From assembly GCA_045591115.1 (NCBI GenBank), contig JAZNSH010000034.1, positions 20,779 to 84,778 on the forward strand: 64,000 nt of DNA, in the 5' to 3' direction. The notes under the pieces were generated by a model. It did no database searches. It saw only the letters and a program-made list of their open reading frames with translations, and was not told where the DNA came from. The stretch comes from Clostridia bacterium (lineage in GTDB: Bacteria > Bacillota > Clostridia > Christensenellales > QALW01). Position 1 is the stretch's first letter. Each line of letters begins with the position of its first letter. This document shows, piece after piece, positions 27,599 through 33,805 of the stretch. The translations under genes and the position numbers were made by a program.

Positions 27599-27635
27599 AC
27601 AAAGTGCCCTATATTAAAAAAAGGACGTGTTTTTT

Positions 27636-28667
27636 ATGACAGATTCTTATTATTTAACCAGAACAAAGAAAACAAATGAAAAATTAAATATTGTTTTAAA
27701 TGAATTGCCACCTTTTTGCAAAACATTATTTATCGGTATTCAAAACAATACCGGTCCACTTACAAGGCTAAACTATGCTTATGATCTGCGTTTATTTTTT
27801 TCATTTCTTTCAGGTGAATTAAATAAACAAGTTAAAGATATTTCCTTAGATGATCTAAAAAAAATAAATGTACACGATATTGAAAATTTTATAAATTACA
27901 TTTCACTTTATGAAAATGAAAATAGTAAGCTTATTGAAAATCGTGAAACGGGAAAAGCAAGAAAAATAGCATCCATACGGATGATGTTTAAATATTTTTA
28001 TAAAAGCGGTGATCTTGAATCAAACGTGGCCTCCCTCATCGACCTGCCTAAATTGCACGAGAAGGCAATAATTCGCCTTGATGTTGATGAAATTGTGAAG
28101 CTTTTGGATCAGGTTGAAAATGGTGATGGATTAACTGAAAAACAAAAGCAATTCCACAATTTAACAAAATCTCGTGATTTAGCTATGCTAACTCTTTTTC
28201 TTGGCACGGGAATCCGTGTAAGTGAATGTATTGGTTTAAATTGTGATGATATTGACTATGAAAATTATAGCATTCGAGTAACAAGAAAAGGTGGAAATCA
28301 GGCTGTTCTGTATTTAAGTGAGGAAGTTGTTGAGGCTTTAAATGCATACAATGAAGACCGTTCTGAAATGAAAGGCGCCGACTCACCTGCCTTCTTTTTA
28401 TCACTTCAAGGAACGCGGTTAACAACACGTTCCGTGCAAAACCTCGTAAAAAAATATGCTTCAATTATAACCCCGTTAAAGCATATTACACCACACAAAT
28501 TGCGTTCAACATATGGTACGACCTTATATCAGGAAACCGGAGATATCTATCTTGTTGCCGATGTTTTAGGTCATAAGGACGTTAATACTACTCGAAGACA
28601 CTATGCGGCACAAGCTGAAGAGAACAGACGGCTTGCTGCGCAATCGGTTAAATTAAGGGATAAATAA
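27636..28667 (+). CDS. Tyrosine-type site-specific recombinase (XerC/XerD-like)
   Basis: N-terminal SAM-like core-binding domain. The catalytic residues are spaced as in Xer/integrases (GTGIRVSE ... HKLRST ... LGHKDVNTTRRHY). Confidence 0.8.
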   Translation: MTDSYYLTRTKKTNEKLNIVLNELPPFCKTLFIGIQNNTGPLTRLNYAYDLRLFFSFLSGELNKQVKDISLDDLKKINVHDIENFINYISLYENENSKLIENRETGKARKIASIRMMFKYFYKSGDLESNVASLIDLPKLHEKAIIRLDVDEIVKLLDQVENGDGLTEKQKQFHNLTKSRDLAMLTLFLGTGIRVSECIGLNCDDIDYENYSIRVTRKGGNQAVLYLSEEVVEALNAYNEDRSEMKGADSPAFFLSLQGTRLTTRSVQNLVKKYASIITPLKHITPHKLRSTYGTTLYQETGDIYLVADVLGHKDVNTTRRHYAAQAEENRRLAAQSVKLRDK

Positions 28668-28697: not shown

Positions 28698-29236
28698 TCA
28701 GATTGCGAACCTAAAAAATACGCGGCAGTTTCGGCATTTTTATAAGCAATATCGGTTAAGCTTTCATTATTTGATGCAATAATAACAGATCCGAGCACAT
28801 CACCGTTAGACAATATGGGAATAATGCATTGAGATTTATAAGAAACAGAGTCGTAATCAGTTATAGGAATAGGTGCTTCCCTACCGTTTTTATCGGTTTT
28901 AAGGCCTTTTCTGGCGTCAATACGCTTCTGTAGCTCCTTGGATAGTGCTTTGCCTAAAAGCTCTTTTTTACCCTGTCCTGAGGCCGCTACGATGAAATCC
29001 TTATCTGTAATTAACGTAGTGTGTCCTAACGTTTTATAAATTGAATTTGCAAACTCCTTGGCGTGCTCTTCAATATCCCCCATTACAGAATATTTTTTTA
29101 AAATTACTCCCCCATCTTTGTCCGTAAAAATCTCAAGAGGGTCGCCTTCTCTGAAATGTAAAGTTCGCCTAATTTCTTTGGGAATTACTACTCTGCCTAA
29201 CTCATCTATTCTTCTCACAATACCTGTTGCTTTCAT
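28694..29236 (-). CDS. spoVT: Stage V sporulation protein T (AbrB-family regulator with a GAF-like domain)
   Basis: MKATGIVRRIDELGRVVIPKEIRRTLHFREGDPLEIF is the canonical SpoVT/AbrB N-terminus. The protein is 180 aa. Confidence 0.9.
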   Translation of the reverse strand: MKATGIVRRIDELGRVVIPKEIRRTLHFREGDPLEIFTDKDGGVILKKYSVMGDIEEHAKEFANSIYKTLGHTTLITDKDFIVAASGQGKKELLGKALSKELQKRIDARKGLKTDKNGREAPIPITDYDSVSYKSQCIIPILSNGDVLGSVIIASNNESLTDIAYKNAETAAYFLGSQSE

Positions 29237-29302
29237 ATATACATTTCTCCTTAAATTATAAATTGTGTTGTTATTATTTGTATTTTAAGGAGATTTATAC
29301 TG
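29205..29302. repeat. Direct repeat R1a: spoVT 5' codons, SD and promoter region
   Basis: 29205-29281 aligns without gaps to 31268-31344 (offset 2,063 nt) with 9 mismatches. A 43-nt core (29235-29277) is identical. Gapped similarity continues to about 29302. Confidence 0.85.
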
Positions 29303-29430
29303 CCTCGTTGAACGTTATTTCAACATGATAATACATTTGATAAAATTTTATGATATAATTAAGAAAACATTGAACCGAAAAGCTATTGTTGCGACCTTGT
29401 AGGTGAAAGCTTTCAAAAGAGGTACCGAAG

Positions 29431-31110
29431 ATGCAAAGTAAAGACTTAGAAAACTACATAAAATTCCTGTTATCTGCAGCCCTACAAAAATGCGGCAATA
29501 TATATGATGCTGAAGATCTAACACAGGAGACACTTCTAGCTGCACTGTCATACATGGCACGTGGCAAAGATATTCAAGATGTAAAAGCATGGCTTCTCGT
29601 TGTTATGGGGCGAAAATTTAATGACATGCTCCGTAAAAGATATAAGCAACCAATAGTCAGTATTGGAGATGACTTTGATATCGTTGATGAGAACGCAATA
29701 ATCCAATTAAATGATGAAGACGACGAAGCGGAGAACGTTCGTAAAGCAGTTGCATATCTCGCAAAAAACTATCGCGAGGTTATCGTGCGGTACTATATGA
29801 ATGGTCAGAGCGTAAGTCAGATTGCATCAGAATTGGGCATTCCTGAGGGAACTGTAAAAAGCAGATTGCATCTTGGCAGGGATCATGTAAAGAAAGGAAT
29901 CAGCGATATGGAAAAATATTCAAAGCAAAGTTATTCACCTATAACACTTCATGTTTCTTACAGTGGAAATCCCGGATTGAACGGAGAGCCGATCACACTT
30001 ATCAAAAACGATCTTATTGCCCAGAATATCCTGTGGTTGGCTTACTCTAAGCCGGTAACTATTAAGGAGATTGCATTGTCTATCGGTATTCCGGCAGCAT
30101 ATATAGAACCTATTGTTGAAAAGCTGGTAGACGGTGAACTAATGAAAAAGGTTGGGAACAAAGTTTATACAGACTTTATGATTTCAACTTTGGATGATAA
30201 GGAAAAGCATATTCCTGCGCAGAAAAAATGTGTACATGAGAATTTTGAGTTATTCTGGAATGCTATCGAAAAAGCCCTTGTGAAGCTCCGTCAGTGTGAG
30301 TTTTACGAAAGGTGTTCATTTGACGCAAGAAACTCCCTGGAACTGTATGTTGCATTCAACTGTCTGGATTACGGAACATATATGACCTTCTCTGAAATAT
30401 TCAATGCTGAACAGCAATTCAATGAACGTCCTAACGGTGGACGATGGATTGCCTTTGGCCATGTTAATTTCAAGGAGTTTGATTACAAGGATCATATCGA
30501 GTTGTTGGCACATTCTTACTCGGGTGAACGCGTTGTAAGGTTTGATAAATATGCCAATTGCGAGATGCTTGAAATGCACGTGTATGGTGCAGATGGATTC
30601 CCGTGTTACCCATATTATTATTCGGCAGATTATACATTTCTCCCTGAGAACACCTTTGTTGATGCCGAGATTGCAAAGCTGCTCTACATTATGCACACGG
30701 GAATTGATCCTGAAAGTGTAGGTTTTAATCCGGAATATCTCAAAGCCATTCCTTGGCTCACAAAATGTAAGATCTTCCGCGAGGAAGCCGGAAAACCAGT
30801 CATAAACATTCCTATTCTCAATAAGGATGAGGCACAAGTTTTGTGGAACCTTTGTACGGAAGCGAAGTGCGAGATAGTAAATGATCTAAAAGAGCTGCTT
30901 ACCGAGTTTTTCAGAGGAAAGAAGCAAGAAATACCTGCACATCTGGATAGTGTTCCTCTGCAGAAACAATATCTGTATGCAGATAATGCTATGCTTTTTG
31001 CCACAATAAGAGAGGCTATTTCAAAAGGCAAGCTGTATGACGGTAATTATGACGACGATAGCAACGGCGTCAATCAACCTCCTTGCCCTATGGTTTTAAT
31101 TGTTGAATAA
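29431..31110 (+). CDS. ECF-type sigma-70 family factor with a C-terminal extension of about 390 aa
   Basis: Region 2 (DAEDLTQETLLAALSYM...WLLVVMGRKFNDMLRK) and region 4 (YREVIVRYYMNGQSVSQIASELGIPEGTVKSRLHLGR) lie in the first 160 aa or so. A winged-helix-like stretch follows (SKPVTIKEIALSIGIPAAYIEPIVEKLVDGELMKKVG), then a long soluble domain with no evident TM helix. Confidence 0.8.
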   Translation: MQSKDLENYIKFLLSAALQKCGNIYDAEDLTQETLLAALSYMARGKDIQDVKAWLLVVMGRKFNDMLRKRYKQPIVSIGDDFDIVDENAIIQLNDEDDEAENVRKAVAYLAKNYREVIVRYYMNGQSVSQIASELGIPEGTVKSRLHLGRDHVKKGISDMEKYSKQSYSPITLHVSYSGNPGLNGEPITLIKNDLIAQNILWLAYSKPVTIKEIALSIGIPAAYIEPIVEKLVDGELMKKVGNKVYTDFMISTLDDKEKHIPAQKKCVHENFELFWNAIEKALVKLRQCEFYERCSFDARNSLELYVAFNCLDYGTYMTFSEIFNAEQQFNERPNGGRWIAFGHVNFKEFDYKDHIELLAHSYSGERVVRFDKYANCEMLEMHVYGADGFPCYPYYYSADYTFLPENTFVDAEIAKLLYIMHTGIDPESVGFNPEYLKAIPWLTKCKIFREEAGKPVINIPILNKDEAQVLWNLCTEAKCEIVNDLKELLTEFFRGKKQEIPAHLDSVPLQKQYLYADNAMLFATIREAISKGKLYDGNYDDDSNGVNQPPCPMVLIVE

Positions 31111-31123
31111 AAGCGTATACCGC

Positions 31124-31152
31124 AAAAGCGAGGTGAAATACACCTCGCTTTT
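31124..31152. terminator. Bidirectional terminator hairpin (module T1)
   Basis: AAAAGCGAGGTG aaata CACCTCGCTTTT, with an A-run upstream and a T-run downstream. Confidence 0.7.
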
Positions 31153-31200
31153 GCTATGTATAGGTCAAAATATGCTGTTTTTCGTCAAAAATTTTTCTTC

Positions 31201-31299
31201 AAAAATCTCCCGAAAAGCCAGTGTTTATAAGGGTTTGTTGCACTTTTGTGTTATTATAACACGAGCCTCTATTCTGCGAACGATTCCGGTTGCCTTTAT
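31201..31299 (-). pseudogene. Decayed 5' fragment of a spoVT homologue, with the start codon lost and a premature stop
   Basis: The reverse strand reads ATA AAG GCA ACC GGA ATC GTT CGC AGA ATA ..., that is (I)KATGIVRRI followed by EARVIITQKCNKPL*. ATG has become ATA, and six synonymous differences from spoVT fall in the first 10 codons. A residual GAGATTTTT match lies further on. Confidence 0.65.
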
Positions 31300-31365
31300 A
31301 TATACATTTCTCCTTAAATTATAAATTGTGTTGTTATTATCTGTTAAAAGGAGAAAAATATACTG
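31268..31365. repeat. Direct repeat R1b: second copy of the spoVT promoter, SD and 5' end
   Basis: See R1a. The identical 43-nt core is at 31298-31340. Confidence 0.85.
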
Positions 31366-31368
31366 AAT

Positions 31369-32352
31369 TTATGCTTGGGATTGTTTTTTATAATTCAAAA
31401 AATAGCAAATAATATAATTTATCAATCCTGACATAAAAACGATTATTATGTCCATAGGAGCAAGGATAATTCCGGGAATACTTTGAAAAATAAATCCTGC
31501 ACCTAAACTGTATAGATGCCCGTTCAGCAAAAACATTTCCCCTATATACATTAGAAGCGTCATTATAGAAGCAACTATGGATGGAATCCATATTGAAAAA
31601 AGTTTTTGCTTTTCTAAGAGAAAAGATCCGGTAAAGACTCCAACCGTTACACCTAAAAGAACAAAGAATATTGTCATCAATGTGGCCGATAATGCAGATA
31701 CGCTAAGGCTTCCATCTCTCCCAAAAGCCGTAAAGCAAGCGAGTATGCAAAGGCAAAGGAATGTAAAGGAACAAACTGACTGAATAATAAGAGACTTAAG
31801 ACGTTTGTTTTCACCGTTATTTATCATTTGCCCAAAACCATACAAACAGTTCAGGATCGTAATTATTAATACAACGGAAATAATGTAAAAATGCATCTTG
31901 AATGCAGGATTATAGTCGCCCATTAAGATATCAACTGCAGTTTGTGTTTTGTATGTAGTTACAGTTTCTCCCCAACCTTCCGGAGGGATGTAACACATAT
32001 ACATCTGCCAGTCCTCAAGCTTTGTGAATGTTTCGGCCGTTGACACCACAACTTTTTCCTCAAAAAACAATTCTAATCCAAAGAAAATGCTTGTTGAAGA
32101 AATTGCTCCGCCGACAAATGCGAATCGCTTAAATAATTTGATAAACAAAGGCATTAAGAGAACAACGATAATGATAGCAACACTGATTGGTGTGTACGGA
32201 ATAATGTATTTAGGATAATTCTCTTTCATTACACTTCCGTCAACAAACATATCTGTAATAACACGAACTCCCATTGATAACGGATAATACGATGCTATCA
32301 AAACACCGAGACAAGAAAACAAATAAAATCGATTAAACTGTTTATTTTTCAT
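31369..32352 (-). CDS. Polytopic membrane protein of unknown function, third gene of the BlaI/BlaR-like operon
   Basis: The product is about 327 aa with roughly 8 hydrophobic segments. The ATG at 32352 lies 7 nt after AAGGAG and 13 nt after the blaR-like stop. Confidence 0.6.
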   Translation of the reverse strand: MKNKQFNRFYLFSCLGVLIASYYPLSMGVRVITDMFVDGSVMKENYPKYIIPYTPISVAIIIVVLLMPLFIKLFKRFAFVGGAISSTSIFFGLELFFEEKVVVSTAETFTKLEDWQMYMCYIPPEGWGETVTTYKTQTAVDILMGDYNPAFKMHFYIISVVLIITILNCLYGFGQMINNGENKRLKSLIIQSVCSFTFLCLCILACFTAFGRDGSLSVSALSATLMTIFFVLLGVTVGVFTGSFLLEKQKLFSIWIPSIVASIMTLLMYIGEMFLLNGHLYSLGAGFIFQSIPGIILAPMDIIIVFMSGLINYIICYFLNYKKQSQA

Positions 32353-32365
32353 ATTTAATCTCCTT

Positions 32366-33280
32366 TCATCCTGCATTTGTTAATAATGCATAGAAAATCG
32401 TTCCAATCAACACAATAAATACAGTAAGTGAAAACCAAGTCAACTTTTTAAAAGACAATATGTTCTCAATTCGTGTTTGCATTTTTGCGCCGCCAAAAGC
32501 AGATGCATATACCGTTACTTTTTGCTTGCTTTCTAACAATGACGATGCATAATCTTTTGTACGGTTAGATCCAATTTTTATAAGAACACGCTCATCACAA
32601 GAGAGTTCGAGATCCTCGAGAAAACATTTTAAGAATAGCCAGCAAAGAGGATTAAACCAATGTACTGCAACAATTACAAAAGCTATAATTCGCCACAAGT
32701 TATCAAAATTACGGATATGTATTTTTTCGTGCAGTACAATTAATTCAACATCTCTGTCTTTATAAGATGATGGCAGAATAATTTTAGGTTTTATAATACC
32801 GTATACAGCAGGAGATAAAATTTTCTCTGATAGATAAATGTTATTTTTTAGATGGGTTGAATCTTTGATTTCATAAATTGATGTAAAATATGCAACAACC
32901 AATATTAAAAGAATGGCCAATAATACAATAAACCATATAACCGAAGCTACACTAAAAATGTTTTCAAGTAAATCGACTTTATATGTTATCGGGAAGTAAG
33001 TATTTGCTGCCATAATACTATTCGTCATTGAAAAAGCTATATCATCAGTAGGCTGGTATACAATAATAGTTTTTGTAGTAAGTTTTGATAATAATGACAT
33101 CAGTCCATAAGGACTGTTGAGTCCAAAGGGAAATGTCATTCTAAGAAAGGGAATTATCCATAAAAACACGGTTATTCTTCTCGGAATTTTTTTTATAAGT
33201 CTGAAGAGCATGATAATAACGCTGGTTATGGTGGCAATTATGCTCATATTAAATATCCAATAAAACACTTCTTGTAACAT
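32366..33280 (-). CDS. M56-family (BlaR1/MecR1-type) membrane metalloprotease lacking the C-terminal penicillin-binding sensor domain
   Basis: 304 aa, multi-TM, with an HEXXH motif (LHEKIHIRNFD). The protein ends after one more TM helix, with no transpeptidase-like domain. Confidence 0.8.
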   Translation of the reverse strand: MLQEVFYWIFNMSIIATITSVIIMLFRLIKKIPRRITVFLWIIPFLRMTFPFGLNSPYGLMSLLSKLTTKTIIVYQPTDDIAFSMTNSIMAANTYFPITYKVDLLENIFSVASVIWFIVLLAILLILVVAYFTSIYEIKDSTHLKNNIYLSEKILSPAVYGIIKPKIILPSSYKDRDVELIVLHEKIHIRNFDNLWRIIAFVIVAVHWFNPLCWLFLKCFLEDLELSCDERVLIKIGSNRTKDYASSLLESKQKVTVYASAFGGAKMQTRIENILSFKKLTWFSLTVFIVLIGTIFYALLTNAG

Positions 33281-33285
33281 AAGCG

Positions 33286-33642
33286 TTACCTATTATCAAT
33301 GAGCTTGCGCAGTTCATTGATTTCTTCTTCAGATAACGGTTCATCTTCAATCAGTGCTGAAAACAGAGCCTTGCGAGAACCACCGAACACCTTTTTGATA
33401 AGTGAAGCAGCTTCTACCTTTTGCATTTCGTTTTGAGATACAAGCGGAGTGCAAATGAATCCTGGATCTTTACGCTGAATAAATCCTTTTGTTTCAAGCT
33501 TTTTAATTATTGTGTAAGTGGTATTTTTATTCCATCCAATAGTATCTGTGGCAATTAAGCTAATATCCTTGGCGGAAATGGGGCTTTTCTCCCATATAAT
33601 TTCCATCACTTTCGCTTCACTGTCAAAAAGTTTTTCTTTCAT
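33286..33642 (-). CDS. BlaI/MecI/CopY family transcriptional repressor
   Basis: 118 aa. A winged helix (EAKVMEIIWEKSPISAKDI...WNKNTTYTIIKKLETKGFI) is followed by a C-terminal dimerisation helix. Confidence 0.88.
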   Translation of the reverse strand: MKEKLFDSEAKVMEIIWEKSPISAKDISLIATDTIGWNKNTTYTIIKKLETKGFIQRKDPGFICTPLVSQNEMQKVEAASLIKKVFGGSRKALFSALIEDEPLSEEEINELRKLIDNR

Positions 33643-33733: not shown

Positions 33734-33761
33734 AAGCGAGGTAAAAATCACCTCGCTTTTT
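33734..33761. terminator. Bidirectional terminator hairpin (module T2), terminator of xylA
   Basis: AAGCGAGGT aaaaatc ACCTCGCTT with an A-run upstream and a T-run downstream. It is near-identical to module T1. Confidence 0.7.
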
Positions 33762-33805
33762 CTATATTATGGATAAAAATTTACTTTGTTTAGTAGAATA
33801 TTTTT

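Follow-up and report, generated by a model that had tools for sequence, protein, structure and literature searches.

A sigma-factor cassette at a fixed point in the 5' end of spoVT in a gut Clostridia genome, probably placed by site-specific insertion

In the window studied here, a 64,000-nt stretch of a Clostridia bacterium genome (GenBank assembly GCA_045591115.1, contig JAZNSH010000034.1, positions 20,779 to 84,778), the 5' end of the sporulation gene spoVT occurs twice in the same orientation: once on the intact gene and once 2,063 nt further upstream, and a gene for an extended sigma factor lies between the copies. The question raised by this locus is how a forespore regulator came to have a second, stranded promoter, and what brought the sigma-factor gene to this position. 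The most likely answer, to which a probability of about 0.6 is assigned, is that the 2,063-bp segment is a cassette at a fixed point in spoVT, placed there by site-specific insertion mobilised in trans.

A repeat search of the window aligned 29205-29281 with 31268-31344 without gaps over 77 nt (68/77 identical, 88%) at a spacing of 2,063 nt, reproducing the repeat reported in a preliminary description of this DNA. The other details of that description were also seen in the sequence. A 43-nt core, ATATATACATTTCTCCTTAAATTATAAATTGTGTTGTTATTAT, is identical by eye at 29237-29279 and 31300-31342, and all nine mismatches lie outside it, eight of them within the 32 nt that correspond on the minus strand to spoVT codons 1-10 and the ninth beyond the core (TTATTTGT vs TTATCTGT). 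The distal copy reads ATA AAG GCA ACC GGA ATC GTT CGC AGA ATA (I-KATGIVRRI) and continues through EARVIITQKCNKPL to a stop codon; its start codon is thus mutated to ATA, and it differs synonymously from the proximal copy in 6/9 shared codons. Two spurious plus-strand open reading frames (ORFs), 29058-29261 and 31100-31324, share the end TIPVAFIYTFLLKL. With gaps allowed, the similarity reaches about 29307 / 31371 and includes a GTATA -35-like box. The 43-mer, searched with up to three mismatches, occurs exactly twice in the 2.69-Mb assembly and its reversed control does not occur at all, so it is neither a generic repeat, a possibility raised by the preliminary description, nor a chance match.

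A second pair of repeats was found further from spoVT, where a hairpin terminator and its flank at 31126-31170 recur at 33734-33778 (78% identity, spacing 2,608). The region is therefore composed of two tandem units. On the spoVT strand the order is xylA, terminator T2, blaI-blaR1-membrane protein, the distal promoter copy (P2) with ten codons, tail, terminator T1, the inverted sigma gene, the proximal promoter copy (P1) and spoVT. The spoVT gene is itself uninterrupted, with its own promoter and start codon present; its product matches NCBIfam spore_V_T with an E-value of 1e-66 and 224 bits, slightly under the 235.9-bit cut-off.

The unit adjoining spoVT, cassette 1 (29205-31267, 2,063 bp), contains the sigma factor as its only gene and encodes no recombinase. 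The sigma DNA (29357-31111) is 91-97% identical at the nucleotide level to sigma genes on metagenome contigs in four different neighbourhoods (an arginine operon; an AraC/GNAT/helix-turn-helix (HTH) cluster; an exonuclease/methyltransferase cluster; a contig resembling the AraC/GNAT/HTH one), none of them beside spoVT. The homology has sharp borders at 29357/29364, 74 nt before the ATG, and at 31111, the stop codon. These homologues in foreign contexts bear out the earlier suggestion that the sigma gene is acquired cargo; among species representatives of the same genus, no protein was more than 41% identical to the sigma protein. The complete cassette was also found elsewhere. A contig from another sample (L301, 2,042 nt, ERZ28653805) matches 29238-31275 end to end at 96.2%, through promoter core, sigma gene, T1, tail, junction and codons 10-8, and the sigma cassette is therefore a discrete heritable or mobile block. 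The length of that contig is one repeat period minus 25 nt, compatible with a circle as well as with a contig bounded by repeats.

In the closest species (G011), whose spoVT is 84% identical, rnj-mltG-rnhA-spoIIP-xer-spoVT are syntenic with the window and the slot of the sigma gene is occupied by a gene for a 155-aa membrane protein. This gene lies between the conserved terminator flank (31123-31206 is present in G011 too) and a spoVT promoter that is homologous to the proximal repeat as far as 29303; upstream of the slot are a GH30 gene and xylA, without the BlaI trio. The comparison with relatives has thus yielded an allele with alternative cargo, in keeping with the capture hotspot proposed in the preliminary description. 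The site of capture, however, lies inside spoVT, after codon 10, and not upstream of the gene as had been supposed.

Cassette 2 consists of a conserved three-gene module (blaI, blaR1 and the membrane-protein gene) that was found at 80-84% nucleotide identity in nine contigs with unrelated surroundings. In 9/9 of these the trio is followed by at least the -35 end of a spoVT promoter copy. The match continues through the whole promoter copy into codons 1-10 in five of them (L078-L082); the copy is broken by insertions resembling miniature inverted-repeat transposable elements (MITEs) in L075-L077, and only its -35 end is present in L083. Because the trio carries a promoter copy in all nine contigs, the distal copy in the window is the right end of the older trio cassette; it is at the same time an attL-type scar. 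The far end of the array, T2, stops 15 nt from the xylA stop codon.

These findings bear on an in-situ tandem duplication of the spoVT 5' region, after which the sigma gene would have inserted between the copies and the distal copy would have decayed. The tandem orientation of the direct repeats and their identical core are what such an event would leave, but the synonymous differences in six of nine shared codons are not expected from it, the distal copy is joined to a foreign tail that is found in at least 119 genomes and forms part of the trio module in other genomes, and the whole sigma cassette, with both ends, occurs elsewhere (L301). In-situ duplication is accordingly most improbable. 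The preliminary description had argued against a fresh duplication from the synonymous divergence, and the foreign tail and the association of the two copies with different cassettes lead to the same verdict.

Table 1. Features of the spoVT cassette array and its flank in the window.
Feature	Coordinates	Strand	Basis
Xer-like tyrosine recombinase gene, flank outside the array	27627..28667	(+)	Pfam Phage_integrase; NCBIfam XerS/XerC-like, sub-cut-off
Intact spoVT, 180 aa	28694..29236	(-)	Pfam SpoVT_C and MazE/AbrB N-domain
Proximal repeat, right end of cassette 1: working spoVT promoter (GTATA box), 5' untranslated region (UTR), Shine-Dalgarno sequence (SD), codons 1-10	29205..29307	(-)	Repeat and gapped alignment; present in L301
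43-nt core, private variant AATTTATAATTT	29237..29279	(-)	Variant in 2/33 cores, both in the window; L301 has the common G
Cassette 1 cargo: sigma factor of extracytoplasmic function (ECF) type with ~400-aa C-terminal extension (gene 29431-31110) and 74 nt upstream	29357..31111	(+)	Nucleotide homology; Pfam Sigma70_r2/r4
Tail module A, left end of cassette 1: GAGGCTCGTGTTATAATAACAC..., A/T palindrome, T1	31123..31267	(-)	Homology to L083, L075
Hairpin terminator T1, bidirectional	31126..31150	(.)	Sequence, repeat, fold; hairpin and flank conserved in units of other genomes
Distal repeat: orphaned promoter, SD, codons 1-10, start mutated to ATA	31268..31371	(-)	Same BLAST match as the trio in L075-L082
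Cassette 2 extent: blaI-blaR1-membrane trio	31268 to about 33791		
Cassette 2 cargo: 335-aa membrane protein (gene 31369-32376), BlaR1-like M56 peptidase, BlaI-like repressor	31369..33642	(-)	Pfam; 80-84% nucleotide identity in 9 contigs
Truncated tail module and hairpin T2, distal array end	33734..33791	(-)	78% to T1 and flank; terminator scan; L075 homology to 33791

The repeated element at the border of each cassette, hereafter the unit, comprises a spoVT promoter, SD, codons 1-10, a fixed junction between AGAATAGA and KG, the tail GAGGCTnGTGTTATAATA, a module of ~130 nt and a hairpin terminator. All units share the SD, the ATG, the ten codons, the junction and GAGGCTnGTGTTATAATA; what follows is a ~130-nt module of one of three kinds (A, B and C), and most modules end in the same hairpin terminator. 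A collection with one genome per species was scanned for the exact junction-spanning pattern AGAATAGAKGMNNGTGTTATAATA, and at least 119 stretches matched, in Oscillospirales-type Clostridia. The metagenome-assembled genomes (MAGs) bearing them are labelled Acutalibacteraceae, Oscillospiraceae, Ruminococcaceae, Faecalimonas, Faecousia and others, and many of the matches lie 200-300 nt from a contig end, as expected for a multicopy sequence. In the window and in all of these stretches the junction falls after codon 10 at the same base. The stretch 31124-31363 (promoter, ten codons, tail and terminator) recurs at 83-85%, once in L083 and twice in L075 (for the tail module region, 85% over 240 nt with L083 8598-8837 and 83% with the two L075 copies), and weaker or shorter forms occur in other genomes of the family, often several per contig. 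Several units per locus were found in L075, L083, L085, L087 and L144, and direct repeats bracket each element in tandem stacks, two cassettes deep in the window.

The units are positioned upstream of spoVT. Among the 54 units with more than 3 kb of downstream sequence, a full spoVT C-domain lies within 0.9-6.5 kb in 20, and the gene is downstream and co-oriented in 21/21 unit-spoVT pairs. Clustering of the 306 ORFs downstream of units gave 210 clusters, with SpoVT as the largest; other cargo includes HTH regulators, membrane proteins, hydrolases, the BlaI trio and the 155-aa protein of G011, and none of the ORFs encodes a recombinase. The first gene downstream is on the minus strand in 58 cases and on the plus strand in 41.

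The proposed mechanism is as follows. Insertion would take place between spoVT codons 10 and 11 (after ...AGA ATA GA). A cassette of this family begins with the tail, the ~130-nt module and the hairpin terminator, continues with any cargo and ends with a copy of the spoVT promoter, 5' UTR, SD and codons 1-10. The resident promoter and ten codons would be stranded upstream as the distal repeat, their transcript halted by the terminator of the tail, and the cassette's own copy, the proximal repeat, would drive an intact spoVT; the gene would stay whole because the cassette brings its own promoter and first codons. T1 is predicted to end both the sigma gene and the transcript of the orphan promoter. 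Of the two stacked cassettes, the trio would be the older and the sigma cassette, adjoining spoVT, the newer. The recombinase would be supplied in trans, probably as the large serine recombinase of a related mobile element, and gene conversion between the two promoter copies would have followed insertion. If this reading is right, the genes for the sigma factor and the BlaI/BlaR1 module belong to the accessory genome and were recently mobile, and the promoter now driving spoVT came with the sigma cassette. The preliminary description had considered that the cassette arrived with a foreign spoVT 5' fragment; this holds for the sigma cassette, which travels with its own promoter and ten codons (L301, 96%), but the distal copy does not stem from the sigma event alone.

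Whether the junction is a reused breakpoint or the relic of a single event can be judged from what flanks it. Seven promoter/UTR types are found to its left and three tail types to its right, in almost every combination. The orphan and the working spoVT promoter of the same locus are unrelated upstream of the SD in 29/39 pairs, and are at least 81% identical in only 10/39, the window included; each cassette therefore usually brings a foreign promoter. The homology between two promoter copies of one locus is often just ~35-45 nt, which makes it a poor RecA substrate. Promoter-tail assortment and the unrelated promoters thus favour a reused breakpoint over one inherited fusion.

One inherited fusion is what stacking driven by homology would require. 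The spoVT promoter, UTR and first codons, together with the terminator module, would then act as portable homology arms without a dedicated recombinase, cassettes being gained, swapped and lost by RecA-dependent exchange or homology-facilitated illegitimate recombination with the DNA of relatives, or by Campbell-type integration of unit x unit circles, and the fixed junction would descend from a single ancient fusion. The failure to find a recombinase for the codon-10 site is consistent with this, the spoVT promoter and UTR are almost invariant across genera and would make a good landing pad, and the copies in the window share ~100 nt with a 43-nt identical core and gene conversion. Moreover, the differences between the window and G011 are confined to the stretch from the conserved terminator flank to the promoter, as would result from a double-crossover replacement. 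Set against these points are the free assortment of promoters and tails, with only ~30 conserved nt left of the junction; the unrelated promoters upstream of the SD, which leave little homology in most loci; a junction exact to the base in more than 119 copies; and the use of a neighbouring site of spoVT by serine recombinases. Stacking by homology is, on balance, a rather unlikely origin of the arrays, though more conceivable for the window, with its ~100 nt of shared sequence and evident conversion, than for other loci.

The neighbouring site is at codon ~31 of spoVT, between …REG and DPLEIF. In 4/301 genomes of the order, ORFs of 720-840 aa lead from a serine-recombinase N-terminus into SpoVT residues ~29-180. 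A search with one fused ORF as query returned 353 relatives, and the best 80/353 are all fused at the same residue (e.g. L218 1628-3799; L220-L299); the carriers belong to at least 80 species, among them Oscillospiraceae, Christensenellales-type MAGs, Flavonifractor, Dysosmobacter, Pseudoflavonifractor and others. Against NCBIfam, the N-terminal part of the fused ORFs scores best with CcrB/CcrC/XisF and the C-terminal part with spore_V_T. Because the fusion is in frame, the recombinase and SpoVT exchange C-terminal tails on integration. Scars of the codon-31 site (promoter, ~31 codons and the conserved tail …TLTLSDIY…) were found in the window genome (C1:23035-23268) and in G015. The sequences make a clear case that the codon-31 site is used by Ccr-like large serine recombinases. 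From this precedent 60 nt away, the exact junction, the free assortment and the unrelated promoters, we infer a site-specific mechanism at codon 10.

Several observations count against that mechanism as proposed. No recombinase was found in the cassette or in the 119 unit loci, none of the genome's eight serine-recombinase genes has a matching C-terminal tail, and no spoVT starting at codon 11 (DELGRVVIP...) behind a recombinase was found among the 301 genomes of the order. The unit tail had no match in plasmid and phage records, and seven IMG/VR matches to a 20-mer of the tail were dismissed as chance, there being no homology beyond the 20-mer. Units also lie away from spoVT in the window genome (C1, C78), which a strict one-site model leaves unaccounted for, and the promoter copies in the window are similar over ~100 nt, so that homologous recombination could act here. 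In related searches, tblastn with the genome's eight copies found no serine recombinases near units in loci L053-L208, and no ORF longer than 133 aa crosses the codon-10 junction.

Candidates for other arms or enzymes were examined and rejected. Apparent non-spoVT left arms were units with GC-rich MITE-like insertions. In G029, a prophage with three recombinases lies 4-8 kb upstream of spoVT but has not inserted into the gene, and the 57 kb upstream contain no spoVT fragment; in G007, the recombinase 22 kb upstream has no relation to any unit. The Xer-like neighbour of spoVT in the window was considered as the cassette integrase, but its synteny is limited to the genus, it is absent from the 119 unit loci, and it is Xer- and not IntI-like. 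It converges with spoVT, and the two genes are syntenic in six genomes of the genus; the Xer-like protein scores 64 bits against the integron integrase model TIGR02249 (cut-off 265 bits) and is also under the NCBIfam cut-offs for XerC, XerD and XerS.

The two cores of the window evolve in concert. Both carry the private G-to-A variant, which is confined to them among the 33 cores examined, and the core of L301 is the common AATTTGTAATTT, without the private A. Gene conversion in the window follows from a substitution that is common to both copies and absent from the L301 cassette. In G011, a different private variant is likewise common to the spoVT promoter and to a unit on another contig. The identity of the 43-mer is therefore due partly to strong constraint, the UTR being nearly invariant across genera, and partly to conversion within the genome. 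Of the earlier proposal that an old duplication had been homogenised by conversion, the conversion of the core is upheld and the in-situ duplication is contradicted. Deletion of the segment by recombination between the repeats, which had also been suggested, appears plausible. The private substitution (29262-29267 and 31325-31330, minus strand) changes TGTAAT to a perfect TATAAT, and the distal copy, with TTAACA 18 nt upstream of the TATAAT, scores 11/12 as a sigma-70-type promoter.

The units might alternatively be kept for a function of their own. Each would then be a small gene timed to sporulation, with a sigma-G-type promoter in front of either a short ORF or a structured RNA and a terminator behind it, and its role as cassette border would be secondary; the product could be a regulatory RNA or a decoy titrating SpoVT or sigma-G. 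The tail module is conserved at 83-85%, equal to neighbouring coding genes, the window unit folds with z = -3.6, a TGnTATAAT box stands at the junction, and the B-type module can form a hairpin of ~90 nt from the junction. These properties are offset by others. The stops of the short ORF vary, and in many copies MITE-like insertions interrupt it or its start is gone, as in the window; compensation in the stem is inconsistent (CT...TT beside CT...AG and AA...TT); no Rfam family matches; the terminator contributes most of the folding energy; and such a function would not explain why units are confined to sites upstream of spoVT and separated from it by foreign cargo. A function of this kind as the main reason for the units is quite improbable.

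The B-type hairpin (e.g. L085 3436-3682) is imperfect and would start 2-3 nt past the junction, with the sequence CTTGTGTT...GGGCAAAC...GTTTGCCC...AACACAAG; the A-type module of the window resembles this sequence minus its inner 70 nt (GTGTTATAATAACAC). RNAalifold draws the long B-type hairpin, and the 30 copies inspected contain unpaired beside compensated combinations. Searches with the Rfam 15 covariance models gave no relevant match in the window (E up to 5) or in five unit-bearing loci (E up to 1). A tRNA-like stretch, GGTTCGATTCC, upstream of the G011 terminator proved to be neither a tRNA nor an Rfam family. Matches to the Rfam Gut-1 RNA lie next to spoVT in a genus-g5 genome (L085 10-191, 63.8 bits, which exceeds the gathering score) and, in G015, within a scar array that has no intact spoVT (L087 10747-10818).

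Units away from spoVT in the window genome were found on contigs C1 and C78. On contig C1 (19793-23268; L302 1794-5269) a second scar-bracketed cassette, with no spoVT nearby, comprises a codon-10 unit (MKATGIVRRIEE and a stop), a Phd/YefM-like antitoxin, an 857-aa restriction-modification-type protein (N6_Mtase/Eco57I/HSDR_N) and a codon-31 scar (MKATGIVRRIDDLGRVVIPKEIRRTMRIHEG joined to NPSKILTLSDIY). On C78 (39468-39551; L303) there is a unit fragment whose ten codons are split by a hairpin insert of ~25 nt, GGCACCCGAAGGAAGTGCCCTTGGGGTAC, and the same insert is at the identical place in units of G011 (L086) and of L119/L142. Small MITE-like insertions are numerous in the units of L075 (5180-5640 and 7985-8500), L098, L105, L193 and L201. 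One such element, of ~72 nt (TACACGC...GGTTCT), lies in the UTR; another, GC-rich and of ~110 nt, lies inside codons 4-7; and in L075 ATGAAAGCAACTGG is duplicated around a further insert.

The cargo genes also have features of their own. Regions 2 and 4 of the sigma protein occupy residues 5-160, the only part covered by PDB matches, and for the ~400-aa extension neither a family nor a solved relative was found in Pfam, NCBIfam or the PDB. Close relatives of the sigma gene (L065-L074, L300) are always the second of a tandem pair encoding extended sigma factors of ~555 aa, preceded in several contigs by an HTH_3 protein; the window holds the second gene only. The 335-aa membrane protein of the trio matched no Pfam or NCBIfam model; more than 100 clusters contain versions of it at 75-86% identity, some of them from MAGs labelled Tyzzerella and Bacteroidales. 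The cassettes are not set apart by GC content (0.34-0.41 vs 0.34-0.39 in the flanks), and no sister strain came to light when the exact sequences of SpoVT and the sigma protein were looked up.

Among known systems, the islands of the staphylococcal cassette chromosome (SCC) and pseudo-SCC type dock at rlmH (orfX) in staphylococci and are moved by the large serine recombinases CcrAB/CcrC. The spoVT cassettes share with them one exact docking position at the end of a conserved housekeeping gene that stays functional, short direct repeats of the gene end that bracket the elements, tandem stacks, and many elements without a recombinase that must be moved in trans; the recombinases of the codon-31 site, moreover, score best against CcrB/CcrC models. 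In contrast to SCC, docking in spoVT is at the 5' end, so that each cassette must bring promoter, SD and ten codons; the cassettes, with one to three genes in 2-3 kb, are very small, the gene that hosts them encodes a sporulation regulator of the forespore, and no codon-10 recombinase was found. The islands at dusA insert into the 5' end of that gene and restore it. They thus resemble the spoVT cassettes in their insertion in the 5' part of a conserved gene, of which the element supplies a replacement 5' end, but dusA islands encode a tyrosine integrase beside the att site and are tens of kb long, whereas the spoVT cassettes are without an integrase, stacked, and in an unrelated target gene. 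Islands with dusA-specific integrases form a named family (PMC8409611).

Sporulation genes are also targets of gene-intervening elements, namely skin in sigK, SPbeta in spsM, gin in gerE and yin in yabG (PMC5025042, PMC5499854, PMC5595907, PMC10747680). There too, site-specific and mostly large serine recombinases place mobile DNA in the sporulation genes of Firmicutes, and the codon-31 elements of spoVT look like members of this class. The genes split by those elements, however, are mother-cell genes, and excision takes place in the mother cell once it is terminally differentiated; spoVT belongs to the forespore (germ line), its copy in the window is left whole by the cassette, and the sigma factor is the only gene in 29205-31267. 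With integrons the array shares small, mostly single-gene, recombinase-less cassettes with a repeated recombination-site-like unit between them, and on the proposed insertion model the newest cassette would adjoin the fixed site. It differs in having no IntI next to it (the Xer-like neighbour is not linked to units outside the genus) and in the mixed orientation of its cargo. B-type tails can form the ~90-nt hairpin at the junction, but no attC consensus was seen, GTTRRRY/RYYYAAC boxes are absent by eye, and compensation in the stem is inconsistent. The spoVT array is not an integron. No account of spoVT as an attachment site or as the target of an intervening element was found in the searchable literature.

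A broader proposal, possible but doubtful, is offered tentatively. The first ten codons of spoVT would be the landing pad of an undescribed, integron-like and trans-mobilised cassette system of gut Clostridia. Its small cassettes, of any content, would carry the forespore promoter and first codons, so that the master forespore regulator would never be lost; the terminator-bearing tail would silence the stranded promoter; and the arrays would grow gene-proximally and be reshuffled by the recombinases of conjugative elements that split spoVT. Stranded promoters could in addition make short RNAs timed to sporulation and bring nearby cargo under the control of the forespore.

The window offers a clear and well-bounded case of cassette docking at spoVT. 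If this reading of the array is right, it would explain the puzzling 'orphan promoter' and 'truncated abrB/spoVT' fragments in MAG annotations, AGAATAGAGGCTnGTGTTATAATA would be a simple marker for accessory cargo such as regulators, restriction-modification genes and resistance-sensor modules, and the site would offer a natural, gene-sparing point of integration for engineering anaerobes that are hard to manipulate. This design, unlike the classic cases, has the 5' end of a regulator of the germ line (forespore) as its point of insertion, and the regulator gene is repaired by the promoter and first codons of each cassette. Exact junctions are present in at least 119 genomes at the species level, and several genera have arrays; on this reading spoVT would be a major unreported hotspot of gene gain in sporulating gut Clostridia.

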